A program made the position numbers and the translations under genes. The notes beneath the pieces were generated by a model that did not search any database, was not told where the DNA came from, and saw only the letters and a program-made list of their open reading frames with translations. 64,000 nt of DNA from a virus. This document shows positions 36,796-47,412 of the stretch, piece after piece. The DNA lies in the IMG/VR virus record IMGVR_UViG_3300049783_001607, one strand, 5' to 3'. The first letter of the stretch is position 1, and each line of letters begins with the position of its first letter.

Positions 36796-36882
36796 ATCTT
36801 ATTTCTTATTAGCTGAAAGGTTTTCCTTACATTTAATTTACATCCCTCTAATAGGGTGCAACACTAATAAGAATAAGGTTAT
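36796..36882 (-). ncRNA. candidate structured element, family A (solo copy)
   Basis: tcttatta...taataaga stem shared with 37868-37950 and 38424-38500. Confidence 0.45.
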
Positions 36883-37083
36883 TTAATCAATTTATAATTT
36901 TTATACACGCAGCTTTTTTGCTTTATCATAATACGCTTCATCTATTTGTAAAACTTTTCCTTTAGGATCTGTGAGCCAGCGTTTAAAATTATTGTGGGTA
37001 GAATGTAATTTTCTCCCGTCTTTAAGTTCTATAGGTTTATCCACACTTGAACTAGGTAAATTGTATTTTTTCATATCTATTAT

Positions 37084-37835
37084 TTATTTAATTGTTTTTA
37101 ATGCGTCTTGTAAACCTTTTTCTAAAGATTTTTCGTAAGATTTATATATTAAAACTTCTTTTGTAATAACATAACTGTTTACTAATCTTTTAATTACAGG
37201 AAAAAAACTCATTCCTGAATCACTTAAATTAGAACTTACTACTAAATCGTGTTTTTCTCTCAACCATCTTTTAAGTTCCGATTGAGTTATATTAAAATAC
37301 CAAAATGAATTTGTATTTAATTGTTTTCTATGCCAATTATGAGGTTGTTTCAATTCACCTAATTTTATAAAATCAGCTATACATAATCCTTTTTCGTTAG
37401 CTAATTGGACTGTTTTAAATTCAATTAATTTATCTTTAATATCTATCATTTAATGGCTTTTAAAATTTCTTGTAAACCTTTTTCTAAAGCATCTTCGAAA
37501 GTAGAAAAATCTTCGCCGCTAACATTTTTATAAGGCGGTACTTCCATAGTATCTTTTTTTAGAATATTAAGTATTTTAAATGTCCAATTTGATGTTATTG
37601 TAGGAATAATAATAACGTAATATCCGTGTATTTCTCGTAACCACTTATTAAGTAATGATTGTGTTGGAGCTGTGATTAAATAATTATCGCCATCTATAAA
37701 AAATTTATGGTTATAATTAGTAAGTATCTCTCTATTTTGAAAACTCCCATCAGAATGATATGCTTTACCTACCCAATCAAATCTTTTCTTTTTTGCTAAT
37801 TCAGATGTTTCAAATGTTGTTATTTCATCTTTCAT
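37084..37835 (-). CDS. two tandem paralogs (37084-37449, 37446-37835) of the KWLRE/LEKGL family
   Basis: Motifs shared with 9634-10032. Confidence 0.7.
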
Positions 37836-37867
37836 TTTTTACTGATTTTAATTTGATTAATAATTAT

Positions 37868-38416
37868 AACCCTCTTTCTTATTACCAGGGAACTATAAGG
37901 CACCTGCTATAAATAGTTTACTGCTTATATTCGTAATAAGAGTAGGGTTATGTAGTTAATGATACTTTAGCAAGGTCGGATGCATAACTGCCATTACCTG
38001 CTTTTCTTAGTCCGGTCCATAGAATCAATGGAATTTATAACTACTTATTGAGAATTCATTTGTGTTGTAGCCGTCATAATACACTAGGCTCACTAAGATT
38101 TCCTTCTCAAAGGAACAACACAAGAAAATATTACTATTTTCATCCAATTTTTAAAGAGGTTTTCGATGTTCAGTCCTCTATTTACTAGGATTACTCCATT
38201 AATTTTTAGGTCTAACCTATTACAGCGATTTCCATCAAAGCTTACGCTCAAGTTTTCTGCTTAATATCCTGTCAATTTAGGATTAGTATATTTATGTGTA
38301 TAATAAAAGGTACGGTTTCAAACCTCAGTTATAGTTTCATCTACTTATAGTTAAATAAGTGACCATTTGGTGCCTTCTTTTTATTATTATTCACAAAGGA
38401 TCAATGTTTAGCCTTT
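37868..38416 (-). ncRNA. candidate large structured ncRNA, family A+B, copy 1
   Basis: ORF-free; colinear conserved blocks shared with 38424-38855; paired stems; strand inferred from neighbouring genes. Confidence 0.6.
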
Positions 38417-38423
38417 TATTAGC

Positions 38424-38855
38424 ACCCTCTTTCTTATTAGCAGTGTTTCAAATTACGCACTTTAAATGGTTTCGAGCCATTCACTAATAAGAGTAGGGTC
38501 GCGTAGTTATTTGATGTGTTTAACTTATCAATGTTGATACTTTCACATAACTACTTGCTGAGAAACTATCCTTATCATTACTTTACAGATAGTTCAAGTC
38601 CTCACGGATACTCGCTCATTTGTGTTGTAGTAGCTTATATTCTACTCTATTTATTATACAACTTTCTCAAGGTTGCAACACATCCAGGATCACTCCATCT
38701 ACAGCCTCTTCTTACGTCAATTACTTGATGTCTAGCGTCTTGATCAGTATCCTGTCAATTCAGGATTAGTATCTTTATGTGAATGTTCACCAACCATAAA
38801 ACTAACGTTTAGTGGCAAATTACTTATATTCACAAAGCATCAATGTTTAGGCTTT
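38424..38855 (-). ncRNA. candidate large structured ncRNA, family A+B, copy 2
   Basis: As copy 1, with different inserts between conserved blocks. Confidence 0.6.
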
Positions 38856-38953
38856 ATTTTTATATTTTAAATAGTTAGCACAGGATATTATAGTTTAAAA
38901 CTATAAAATAAGCCTAAACCTGTCTATTTCTCGGGCTATTCTGCTAACTATAA

Positions 38954-39223
38954 TAAACTCTTTGACCCAAAATTCAGTTATGGGATATTGTTTTTACACT
39001 AGTAACTTCGGTTTCGAACCGACTACTTCCCTTTGATGGACTAGCACAATACATCTACAATATTTAATACCCTTTCGGGAACACAACTGCTGATACAGTT
39101 TAATAACATAATAGCGTTACTGCCATCGCCTAATACCGTCTTTTCGCATTTAAAGTACGTGTAGCAATCATCAGATTTATTATATTTAACATGTTATTGT
39201 TTATCTTCAATTCAAAGAGTTTA
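38954..39223 (-). ncRNA. candidate structured ncRNA, family C, copy 1
   Basis: Closing stem aaactctttga/tcaaagagttt; conserved cccaaaattcagttatggga, ctgatacagttt, ttattgtttatct. Confidence 0.6.
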
Positions 39224-45345: not shown

Positions 45346-45368
45346 TTTGTAATATTTTTAATGTTAGA

Positions 45369-45857
45369 TTAAAGTCCTTCTTTTTTTAATGCACTCGCTA
45401 ATTGCTCATAATAAATTAAATTCGTTTTATAATTTGAGTTTTCTAATTTTGGCAAATTAAATTCCATACAAATAGACTTGATTTTTTCTTCTTCTATAAC
45501 AAAACCAATTTCGTCTTCGAGGCTTGATAAGTAAAGTAAAAATGTTATTATACATCCTGTTCTCAAGTTATCTATAGATACTTCAAACCGTCTTAAAGTA
45601 TGTGTAGATATCCCAAAATTTACCTCTTTTGCTCTTTCGTGTAAACCTATTATATTATCTACAGTAAATGGTTTATCCATTAATTGACATAAAGTATTTG
45701 TAGCAGCGCAGCCAAAACATACTTCATCATCAGTTACACTTCCAAAAGTATCCATATCAACTTCTACCCATTCTTTTTTTAAACCGTGTATCATAGCAAA
45801 TATAATATCTGAAACGGAGTTTATGTTCTTAAATATCCCTGTTTGTATTTTATCCAT
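45369..45857 (-). CDS. tandem array paralog 5
   Basis: Same motifs. Confidence 0.85.
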   Translation of the reverse strand: MDKIQTGIFKNINSVSDIIFAMIHGLKKEWVEVDMDTFGSVTDDEVCFGCAATNTLCQLMDKPFTVDNIIGLHERAKEVNFGISTHTLRRFEVSIDNLRTGCIITFLLYLSSLEDEIGFVIEEEKIKSICMEFNLPKLENSNYKTNLIYYEQLASALKKEGL

Positions 45858-45879
45858 TTGTAATATTTTTAATGTTAAA

Positions 45880-46365
45880 TTAAAGCCCTTCTTTTTTTAA
45901 TTCAGCAGCAATTTTTTCATAGAAATGCAGATTTTTTTTATAATCGTCAGTATCTAATTCTGGTAAATTAATTTTATTCATAATGCTGATAAGTCTGTCC
46001 GTTTCAATTTTTATACCGATTTCTTTTTCAATTTCTATTAAATGATGTATAAATTCCCTACTTCTTCCTAGTCTTAAATTATCTAAAGACATTTCAAATA
46101 CTTTTAAAGTGTACCAATCAATTCCAAAATTTACTTTTTCACGTCTACTTTTTAGGTTGTTTATATTACTTGCATTAAAAGGTTCTCCCATTAATTGACA
46201 CAAAGTATTAGTAGCAGCGCAACCGAAACATACTTTTTTATATACAGCTCCATAAGTTTGCATATCAATTTTTACCCACTCTTTTTTTAATCCCTCTGTC
46301 ATAGCTAGTATTATGTCTGAGACTGAATTTATTTTACTGAATATACCTGTTTGTATTGTATTCAT
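45880..46365 (-). CDS. tandem array paralog 6
   Basis: Same motifs. Confidence 0.85.
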   Translation of the reverse strand: MNTIQTGIFSKINSVSDIILAMTEGLKKEWVKIDMQTYGAVYKKVCFGCAATNTLCQLMGEPFNASNINNLKSRREKVNFGIDWYTLKVFEMSLDNLRLGRSREFIHHLIEIEKEIGIKIETDRLISIMNKINLPELDTDDYKKNLHFYEKIAAELKKEGL

Positions 46366-46388
46366 ATTGTAATATTTTTAATGTTAGA

Positions 46389-46874
46389 TTAAAGCCCTTC
46401 TTTTTTTAATGCTTCTGCAAATACTTCGTAATGTCGTAAATTGATTTTATAATTTTCATTAGTTAATATTGGTAAATAAACTTTATCCGCAATAACCATA
46501 ATTTTTTCTTCTTCGATTTTTATACCAGTCTTTTTCTCAATTTGTTCTAAACAGTATAAAAAATCTTCAGTTCTTGCTTCTCTTAAATGATCTAAACCCA
46601 TTTCAAAGTTTCCTAAAGTATGGCTATCAATCCCAAAATTTACTTTTTTACGTCTGGATTGTAGGCTAATTATATTATTTTCATTAAAAGGCTCTCCCAT
46701 CAACTCACATAAAGTATTAGTAGCTGCACATCCAAAACATAGATTATTTTCTTCATATCCGTAACTTTGCATATCAACATTTACCCATTCTTTTTCTAAG
46801 CCTCGGATCATTGTAAATATTATGTCAGAAACTGAATTTATTTTACTGAATATGTTTTCTTGTATTGTATCCAT
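46389..46874 (-). CDS. tandem array paralog 7
   Basis: Same motifs. Confidence 0.85.
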   Translation of the reverse strand: MDTIQENIFSKINSVSDIIFTMIRGLEKEWVNVDMQSYGYEENNLCFGCAATNTLCELMGEPFNENNIISLQSRRKKVNFGIDSHTLGNFEMGLDHLREARTEDFLYCLEQIEKKTGIKIEEEKIMVIADKVYLPILTNENYKINLRHYEVFAEALKKEGL

Positions 46875-46902
46875 TCTGTAATTATTTTTTTTTAGTGTTA
46901 GA

Positions 46903-47412
46903 TTAATACCCTTCTTTTTTTAAGTCTAAAGCAAATTCTTTATAGATAGGCAGATATTCTTTAAAATCTTCATTGTATAATATTGGTAAATGATATGTGC
47001 TGCTAAAGCATAAGATTTCTTCAACTTTTACAGCAAACCCTAGTTCTTTTTCTAGTGCTTTTATATGCGATAAAAACCAGTCTATATCTCCCACTCTTAA
47101 CTTATCTACTCCTTGTTCAAATCTATATACAACATCTGAAGGGATACCAAAATTTACTAGAGAAGCTCTTTCTTCTACGCTGTGTATATTACTGGAATCA
47201 AAAGGTTTTCCCATCAATTGACATAGAGTATTAGTAGCTGCACATCCAAAACACATATTTTTTTCATTAGCTATTGTCTCACCAAACCTTGTTGTACCAT
47301 AGGTTTCCATATCAACATTTACCCATTCTTTTTCTAAGCCTGCTACCATAGCAAATATAATATCTGAAATTGAGTGCACATCTTCAAATAAACCTGTATA
47401 TTTTTTATTCAT
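46903..47412 (-). CDS. tandem array paralog 8
   Basis: Same motifs. Confidence 0.85.
   Translation of the reverse strand: MNKKYTGLFEDVHSISDIIFAMVAGLEKEWVNVDMETYGTTRFGETIANEKNMCFGCAATNTLCQLMGKPFDSSNIHSVEERASLVNFGIPSDVVYRFEQGVDKLRVGDIDWFLSHIKALEKELGFAVKVEEILCFSSTYHLPILYNEDFKEYLPIYKEFALDLKKEGY

Follow-up and report, generated by a model that had tools for sequence, protein, structure and literature searches.

Two phage RNA families, lnc1 and C, in an ORF-free island of a marine crAss-like phage

What occupies about 2.67 kb of phage DNA that lacks open reading frames (ORFs) and is tiled by repeated, stem-closed elements? The question is raised by IMG/VR virus record IMGVR_UViG_3300049783_001607, of which a stretch of 64,000 nucleotides (hereafter, the window) was analyzed. 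The window derives from a marine phage of the crAss-like type that is related to Cellulophaga phage phi14:2 (Crassvirales, Steigviridae), and between 33.8 and 50 kb every gene is carried on the minus strand. In the original prediction, which was made from the sequence without database searches, the elements (types A, B and C and at least four singletons) were described as an ORF-free island on the gene strand and were read as a set of small RNAs or ribonucleoproteins processed from an early transcript. The observation was confirmed and the interpretation partly supported. The island contains members of two phage-only RNA families, lnc1 and C, both of which lie outside Rfam and whose steady companions are each other, transfer-messenger RNA (tmRNA) and tRNAs. 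The present analysis contributes the architecture of C, the linkage between lnc1 and C, the mapping of lnc1 to a published transcript and a test of coupling between the RNAs and the neighboring proteins.

The ORF-free stretches (36772-36900; 37836-39225, 1390 nt; 39970-40151; and 42309-43281, 973 nt) are tiled on the gene strand as had been proposed. Treating any one of the stop codons as a sense codon leaves these gaps closed (no open run exceeds 121 codons on either strand), and an alternative genetic code was thus ruled out as an explanation for them.

Copies, folds and covariation of lnc1 and C

Repeat finding and self-blast placed the C blocks at the four positions listed in Table 1, the A-type blocks at 36790-36889, 37863-37958 and 38418-38509, and the B-type blocks at 38258-38416 and 38741-38855. 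All three types of copy were therefore where they had been predicted, while the parse into separate A and B elements was not upheld: B is the 5' domain and A the 3' domain of a single large RNA, named lnc1. When regions 38405-38865 and 37850-38425 were aligned with phi14:2, B, a conserved middle segment and A were colinear and thus form a single unit of 450-560 nt, which occurs in two tandem copies in the window (U1 and U2) and in one copy in phi14:2; the conserved blocks of U2 are colinear with both U1 and phi14:2, and the lnc1 blocks of the window are likewise colinear with 16 viral contigs. Lengths within the family range from 380 to 580 nt. The third predicted A corresponds to the 3' hairpin (H8) of lnc1 standing alone, in degenerate form (repeat families D9 and D10; minimum free energy (MFE) z-score -3.9), and nhmmer gave no match between it and the lnc1 profile at E <= 1.

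Against a family profile of 19 sequences, nhmmer matched U1 at E 1.3e-75 (profile positions 8-431) and U2 at E 3.9e-63 (positions 14-437). The phi14:2 copy, on the same strand as the genes, gave a full-length profile match at E 2.8e-81. At the DNA level, phi14:2 was the sole GenBank phage to match 36700-43400 (blastn), with ~82% identity over window positions 38414-38701, a segment that is non-coding in both phages; U1 itself is ~82% identical to phi14:2 3112-3364 (250-290 nt compared).

The lnc1 core comprises ten helices, two GNRA-type loops and one pseudoknot, with variable arms at fixed positions, and all core helices and the pseudoknot are kept in both U1 and U2. In a core alignment of 24 sequences, the helices (H1-H8 core) were 86-100% paired, versus 16-74% when the partner columns were slid. 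Compensatory changes were evident in H4, under the GUAA loop (GC in 18 sequences, CG in 6), in H2 (AU 11, GC 8), in H5 (UA 20, CG 3) and in H5b (CG 16, AU 4, GC 1), the last of which reads CAAC/GUUG in U1 and UUCC/GGAA in U2. The pseudoknot, formed between the loop GAGAA and a distal UUCUC, was 97% paired, with an A-U to C-G swap in one sequence. G-U pairs, including six in a single H7 pair, indicate the transcribed strand. Inserts of up to ~600 nt are found at fixed positions between the conserved blocks. Two contigs carry lnc1 with insertions of ~470 and ~600 nt (L047 3176-3645 and L039 12753-13348, respectively) in both cases at the variable position that separates H3 from H4, and in a third (L017 4445-4680) a partial second lnc1 lies just downstream of the first.

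The C family is represented by 56 distinct copies, mostly of 165-280 nt (family range 160-280 nt). A covariance model (R1) was trained on 39 sequences, namely 38 copies from other phages and Cb of the window; with filters off, it reported exactly four sites in the 64-kb window, Ca to Cd, all of them on the minus strand. The most diverged of these, Cd, was also matched by an nhmmer profile built from the window only (E 2.4e-47). From the 5' end, C consists of a closing stem of 7-10 bp (P1), the conserved segment UUGAAGAUAAAC, a stem of 4-6 bp (P2) that closes variable arm 1, the P3 hairpin AAACUG-UAYYAG-CAGUU, the segment GUGUUUAUUGUAGAG, whose GUUUAU pairs with an upstream AUAAAC, variable arm 2, hairpin P4 and finally the 3' strand of P1. 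Across the 39 sequences, 96.9% of the cells in this fold are paired, versus 33-50% when slid; ten pairs are changed on both sides, and the observed covariation score was reached by none of 500 shuffles. In P2, contiguous pairs numbered 5.92 when each strand was combined with its own partner and 4.14 with the partners of others, with a maximum of 4.6 over 200 permutations.

A four-base kissing loop between P3 and P4 alternates between UCAG:CUGA and CUAG:CUAG (UA 18, CG 16 at one position; CG 18, UA 17 at the other), with a U-G intermediate in one contig (L176) and the switch on the other P1 background in another (L218). In phi14:2 the loop is shifted to UAUCA:UGAUA. In the window, Ca, Cb and Cd have UCAG:CUGA, and Cc, in which UCAA faces AUGA, keeps three of the four pairs. 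Changes in P1 and P3 of Cc relative to Ca preserve pairing, and P1 (CUUUUUG/CAAAAAG) and P4 (CUUA/UAAG) of Cd are compensated. The four copies differ chiefly in their variable arms. The constant scaffolds with variable inserts that had been noted thus belong to RNAs whose structure is genuine and which lie on the gene strand. Two other contigs, L044 (~7490-7620) and L048, show a tandem second element that is C-like but diverged.

As had been predicted, two C elements directly follow genes of the paralogous family M: P1 of Ca begins 3 nt after the TAA (39226-39228) of the M gene at 39226-39969, and P1 of Cb stands at the same distance from the stop (40152) of the M gene at 40152-40925. Just upstream of Cc lies sequence resembling the 3' end of an M gene, and repeat family D5 extends into this M-like tail. 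Since the C repeat reaches into the 3' end of M, and since the closest relative of the window has one C and one lnc1, tandem duplication, both of M-plus-C cassettes and of lnc1, rather than a programmed array, offers the best account of the multicopy state.

Table 1. Positions of the RNA elements and neighboring genes in the window
Feature	Coordinates	Strand	Description
U1 (lnc1)	38416..38864	-	~450 nt; B1 + middle + A2 of the original parse
U2 (lnc1)	37855..38419	-	~565 nt, bigger variable inserts; B2 + middle + A1
Solo H8 hairpin	36790..36889	-	degenerate lnc1 3' hairpin, third 'A' of the original parse; CUUAUUCUUAUUAG pairs with CUAAUAAGAAAUAAG
Ca	38951..39230	-	~270 nt; R1 69.8 bits, E 3.9e-11, full length; nhmmer E 1e-60
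Cb	39986..40156	-	~160 nt, minimal form; R1 93.9 bits, E 1.2e-15
Cc	42454..42720	-	~265 nt; R1 51.9 bits, E 8.8e-08
Cd	42963..43198	-	most diverged; R1 40.2 bits, E 1.4e-05, partial (model positions 18-116)
S1	38866..38952	-	stem-closed hairpin between Ca and U1; MFE -18.5 kcal/mol, z -2.5
S2	43193..43281	-	stem-closed, directly after the last array gene; MFE -22.1 kcal/mol, z -3.9
S3	42736..42962	-	multi-hairpin, between Cd and Cc; MFE z -1.7
S4	42309..42456	-	weak structure, downstream of Cc; MFE z -0.45, like shuffled sequence
M gene	39226..39969	-	
M gene	40152..40925	-	
M gene	41314..42045	-	
Small gene	40928..41335	-	
Small gene	42042..42308	-	
Array	43282..47412	-	eight paralogs of 161-173 aa each; the RNA island lies downstream

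Transcription, distribution and genomic company

Expression of lnc1 can be read from published work on phi14:2. Two intergenic junctions of that phage, g004-g005 and g005-g006, are transcribed rightward at levels above most protein genes, from the earliest time point and without decay, and the authors classed both transcripts as long non-coding RNAs, with no function assigned (Drobysheva et al. 2020, bioRxiv 10.1101/2020.03.07.982082). By the numbering of RefSeq NC_021806 (g004, 2194-2904; g005, a removed ORF at 3590-3910; g006, 4602-4901), the g004-g005 junction is lnc1 (2895-3370), which directly follows the M-family gene g004, and the g005-g006 junction, the second of the two 'long non-coding RNAs', is reassigned here as a tmRNA (4031-4500, equivalent to 4865-5334 on the minus strand of our locus L001). 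This tmRNA is unannotated in the record; ARAGORN gives its tag as GSSVQKLAMVA, and its Rfam score (46 bits) falls just below the gathering score of 47. The phi14:2 transcript and the window's lnc1 are of the same family, present in one copy and in two tandem copies, respectively; the phi14:2 paper proposed no structure, family or function for it, and the tmRNA assignment is a finding of the present analysis.

Stable transcription, on which the original prediction had staked its reading, is on record for lnc1 in its phi14:2 ortholog only. The notion of a processed early transcript is also in keeping with the lack of terminator-like sites detected on the minus strand between 36.5 and 47.6 kb, which fits co-transcription of the RNAs with the flanking genes. 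The part of that notion which did not stand concerns the products: because A and B are one RNA, the island encodes large ornate RNAs and not a set of many small ones. A scan for sigma-70 promoters and terminators gave no enrichment, the consensus being unsuited to Bacteroidota or to a virion polymerase.

Both families are widespread among phage sequences. An 18-nt pattern from H3 of lnc1 retrieved 53 IMG/VR stretches, and an independent 21-nt core pattern 117; by nhmmer, lnc1 was recognized in at least 128 distinct stretches, at least 22 of them full length in the first scan. Among genomes of ~185,000 species, the lnc1 core occurred in only four contigs of metagenome-assembled genomes (MAGs). 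The 20-nt core of C was present in 113 IMG/VR stretches and was not found in 401 sampled Bacteroidota genomes. Neither family was matched by Rfam 15, in the window (36700-43400, to E <= 5) or in 14 related loci (at the gathering score).

The cultured carriers are Cellulophaga phages phi14:2, with both lnc1 and C, and phi4:1 and phi17:2 (145-kb phages), with C. In all three, representing two unrelated phage types, C (record positions 1285-1567, ~129584-129834 and ~130062-130311, respectively) directly follows the gene of an OmpA-domain membrane protein, which in phi14:2 is g002, 7 nt upstream. Tiny ORFs (gp003 and gp004) formerly annotated over the phi14:2 C have since been dropped from RefSeq.

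Twenty-five loci carry both RNAs, on the same strand in all those examined and mostly less than 250 nt apart, in either order; C was single in 92 of the 93 other loci. The nearest tRNA or tmRNA was on the same strand as lnc1 in 55 of the 58 loci that have one in the flank, and lay within 500 nt of lnc1 in 26 loci (a tmRNA in 12). Representative orders are lnc1-tmRNA-C-tRNAs (L051), lnc1-C-tRNA-Cys (L012) and C-lnc1-tmRNA-tRNA (L029). In three contigs (L006 1832-1890; L044 7957-8065 and 8638-8712; L039 13718-13792), tRNA or tRNA-like genes abut lnc1 within 0-50 nt, at one end or both, so that RNase P and RNase Z could set its ends there. tmRNAs were also recorded in related contigs L029, L051, L009, L020 and L013. 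SmpB and RNase R were not among the ten commonest annotated neighbor families of lnc1 and C, and a dedicated trans-translation module was rejected as a general explanation, SmpB being absent from five records with lnc1 or C.

A closer relative than phi14:2 was found in a MAG contig labeled 'Clostridium sp.' (L057 / G003:C1, NZ_JBNMNU010000001.1, 100,089 nt), which carries one C, one lnc1, an M gene and nine tRNAs, together with a phosphoesterase 75% identical in protein sequence to the one beside the window's island. It almost certainly represents the complete genome of a crAss-like phage akin to that of the window, placed in the MAG probably by a binning error; lnc1 was also present in another 'Clostridium sp.' MAG contig (L058).

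In the window itself, neither ARAGORN nor Rfam called a tRNA or tmRNA within 36.7-43.4 kb; a tRNA cluster (Phe, Trp, Cys, Asn and Tyr) lies at 62854-63594 on the minus strand, 20 kb from the RNA island. Elsewhere on the minus strand, Rfam matched the DUF805b RNA at 6959-6994 (40.2 bits versus a gathering score of 35.6). The gene just downstream of the island (35762-36442, minus strand) encodes a calcineurin-like metallophosphoesterase (Pfam Metallophos, E 1.8e-15), which also matches the candidate defense family PADLOC PDC-S10 (E 3.4e-60).

Candidate roles of the island

The explanation to which we incline, with moderate confidence, is that genes for stable, structured non-coding RNAs are clustered here among early genes of the phage that have been duplicated. 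The RNAs would be read through on the minus strand from the upstream early genes, which in phi14:2 use a virion-borne RNA polymerase, and host nucleases would then release them from this long transcript; in other phages, where tRNAs or tmRNA are their immediate neighbors, the cuts would be made by RNase P and RNase Z. The RNAs would persist because their ends are paired and their folds compact, and as RNA particles, with or without protein partners, may act in trans on some conserved machinery of the host, most probably that of translation or RNA processing. Their genomic niche is shared with the ROOL and GOLLD RNAs of other phages.

Several points weigh against this explanation. The trans action and the target of lnc1 and C are argued from genomic context. 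As the H3 hairpin and the 21-nt core served as search patterns, they look invariant in part for that reason, and the covariation in C, which to a large extent divides two clades, may stem from a modest number of independent events. No tRNA or tmRNA was in the flank of 70 of the 128 lnc1 stretches, the window's own cluster is distant, and SmpB was not found in the five records mentioned above; many IMG/VR records are fragments, so that co-occurrence counts are lower bounds. The g002-g003 junction, the site of C, was not singled out in the phi14:2 paper (bioRxiv 10.1101/2020.03.07.982082). Separately, an inspection by eye for complementarity between conserved unpaired segments of lnc1 and C gave nothing convincing.

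The first alternative concerns C, which could punctuate the early transcript in cis, as a self-cleaving ribozyme of a new kind or as a dedicated substrate for a nuclease, with cuts at the boundaries between genes and RNAs; such cuts would set the ends of both the upstream mRNA and the neighboring lnc1, tmRNA or tRNA. We regard this as unlikely. Its appeal lies in the placement of C: immediately past the M stops in the window and past g002 in phi14:2, between the tmRNA and the tRNAs in L051, and 0-10 nt from the ends of lnc1 (in profile coordinates) in six contigs (L012, L029, L065, L143, L159 and L192). The conserved, mostly unpaired junction of ~60 nt and the kissing loop resemble a catalytic or ligand-binding core, and some processing step is needed since terminator-like sites were not found on the gene strand. 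A boundary position is, however, also expected of an independent RNA gene. Moreover, C has no match to the Rfam ribozymes (hammerhead, twister, pistol, hatchet and HDV-like) at E <= 5, exceeds typical self-cleavers at 160-280 nt and displays no identifiable cleavage-site signature.

The model of the original prediction, in which M, and possibly the array proteins, would bind the RNAs as ribonucleoproteins and each copy would take its own target from its variable arms, now appears quite improbable. The six M paralogs and the eight-gene array upstream were present, on the same strand, as described. The genes spanning 39226..42045 belong to phrog_15656 (M) and phrog_26828, both of unknown function. 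A hidden Markov model (HMM) of the M family detected six members in the window (at 31907, 32495, 33847, 39226, 40152 and 41314), with E-values of 1e-41 to 1e-44 for those between 39226 and 42045. Clustering and iterated HMM searches made M the commonest protein neighbor of lnc1 and C, always on the same strand, within 4 kb in 37 of 205 loci (18%); an earlier tblastn search of the window's proteins against 54 loci, which was too insensitive, had recovered M in phi14:2 only. In favor of the model, M is encoded in both near-complete phage records tested, M directly precedes lnc1 in phi14:2, and the window's C copies differ mainly in their arms.

The coupling to these proteins, as proposed, is weak. 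In 82% of the RNA loci there was no M within 4 kb, in two phage records M lay apart from the RNAs, and relatives of the array family (phrog_32504, function unknown; E ~1e-24 for the three members scanned, at 43282, 44341 and 46903) were never found near lnc1 or C in 205 other loci. M has no Pfam family, the array family has no Pfam match and neither has a PADLOC match. The AlphaFold model of M is of low confidence (pLDDT, the predicted local distance difference test, 60) and shows no recognizable RNA-binding fold; Foldseek returned nothing significant (best E 0.16), its Tudor/KOW-like rows being weak and a lead at most, and a PDB profile search and an Atlas search gave no matches. Variable arms at fixed positions are usual in large RNAs and need not encode specificity, and the single C in almost all loci of other phages speaks against this model.

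Guide, decoy and antitoxin-mimic roles, also floated originally, were not supported, as there was no spacer-like targeting content and the two protein families lacked PADLOC matches. The tRNA-mimic or decoy idea was dropped because T-arm-like hairpins, noticed in some of the variable arms (for example GGUUCGAAACC in Ca), are unenriched, at 0.25-0.4 per kb versus a background of 0.2.

A third alternative, of similarly low probability, is that the elements are passive cis structures (3'-end stabilizers, attenuators or spacers) that tune the flanking mRNAs and have no role of their own. The position of C directly after stop codons would suit this reading, and S1, S2 and the solo hairpin may well be such structures, being simple stable hairpins without relatives. 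All four singletons were indeed stem-closed, as predicted, but they are not conserved: none had relatives among 261 loci or in the closest related phage. In folding energy, S1, S2 and the solo hairpin exceed the stability of shuffled sequence, S3 does so weakly and S4 does not. A two-hairpin segment of S3 (42783-42843) resembles freshwater-1 RNA (Rfam RF02979), a match that was taken as chance because it is sub-threshold (27.1 bits versus a gathering score of 72) and supported by no relative. In lnc1 and C, on the other hand, phages that have no other detectable DNA similarity preserve a pseudoknot, a kissing loop and long runs of conserved unpaired sequence; the two RNAs also stand between RNA genes, not solely after protein genes, and the phi14:2 lnc1 transcript outlasts and outnumbers the neighboring mRNAs.

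Finally, the suggestion that these are DNA-level repeats (miniature transposable elements, recombination sites, or replication or packaging signals), for which terminal inverted repeats and several copies in one genome might be cited, is scarcely credible and is contradicted by the G-U wobbles and the U-G intermediate, which maintain the pairs in just one of the strands, and by the unequal scores that the covariance model gives the two strands (94 bits for the minus strand of Cb versus 14.5 for the plus), quite apart from an orientation that always follows the genes, one copy per locus in 92 of 93 cases, the lack of target-site duplications or a transposase, and an lnc1 ortholog that is an abundant transcript.

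Relation to known phage RNAs

In many related phages, lnc1 and C occur inside tmRNA and tRNA clusters, on the same strand and often within tens of bases, and the acceptor stems of tRNAs find a parallel in the paired termini of both RNAs. In contrast to such clusters, the island itself has no ARAGORN or Rfam call, no T-arm enrichment and no tag reading frame.

Large ornate RNAs of bacteria and phages, such as OLE, GOLLD and ROOL, are rare and of unknown function, and each new class is a notable find; ROOL and GOLLD form RNA-only cages. A bolder and rather unlikely reading is that lnc1 and C are two new classes of RNA machine specific to Bacteroidota phages. C would here process the cluster of early RNAs, either as a ribozyme or as a fold that senses a ligand, new in both cases, and lnc1, alone or with C, would assemble into a multimeric particle through invariant loops (for example the AAUU-containing H3 loop and the covarying C kissing loop). 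The particle would act on ribosomes or tRNAs of the host, a role that has also been proposed for ROOL and GOLLD. If this were so, the window's copies, with their different arms, would represent a diversified toolkit.

Many tiny ORFs once annotated in such regions are spurious. As the Cellulophaga phages that carry these RNAs are culturable and RNA-seq that covers lnc1 is published, the function of an ornate phage RNA becomes directly testable in a tractable phage-host pair.

In sequence and helix layout, ROOL (RF03087) and GOLLD (RF01998) are unrelated to lnc1 and C, which the Rfam searches given above did not match. The sources of lnc1 and C are cultured Cellulophaga phages and phage contigs, of which three had been assigned to Bacteroidota and Clostridium MAGs. 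ROOL and GOLLD are described in the literature as phage RNAs often found near tRNA islands, and this context, which lnc1 and C share, is a resemblance and no evidence of membership. The likeness extends to the general design: large, ornate, phage-encoded RNAs of unknown function, in which a conserved core with variable linkers is held together by pseudoknots and covarying loop-loop contacts, one of which, in ROOL, proved according to the literature to be intermolecular. lnc1 and C add two further classes of ornate phage RNA, each with more than 100 natural variants for covariation analysis.

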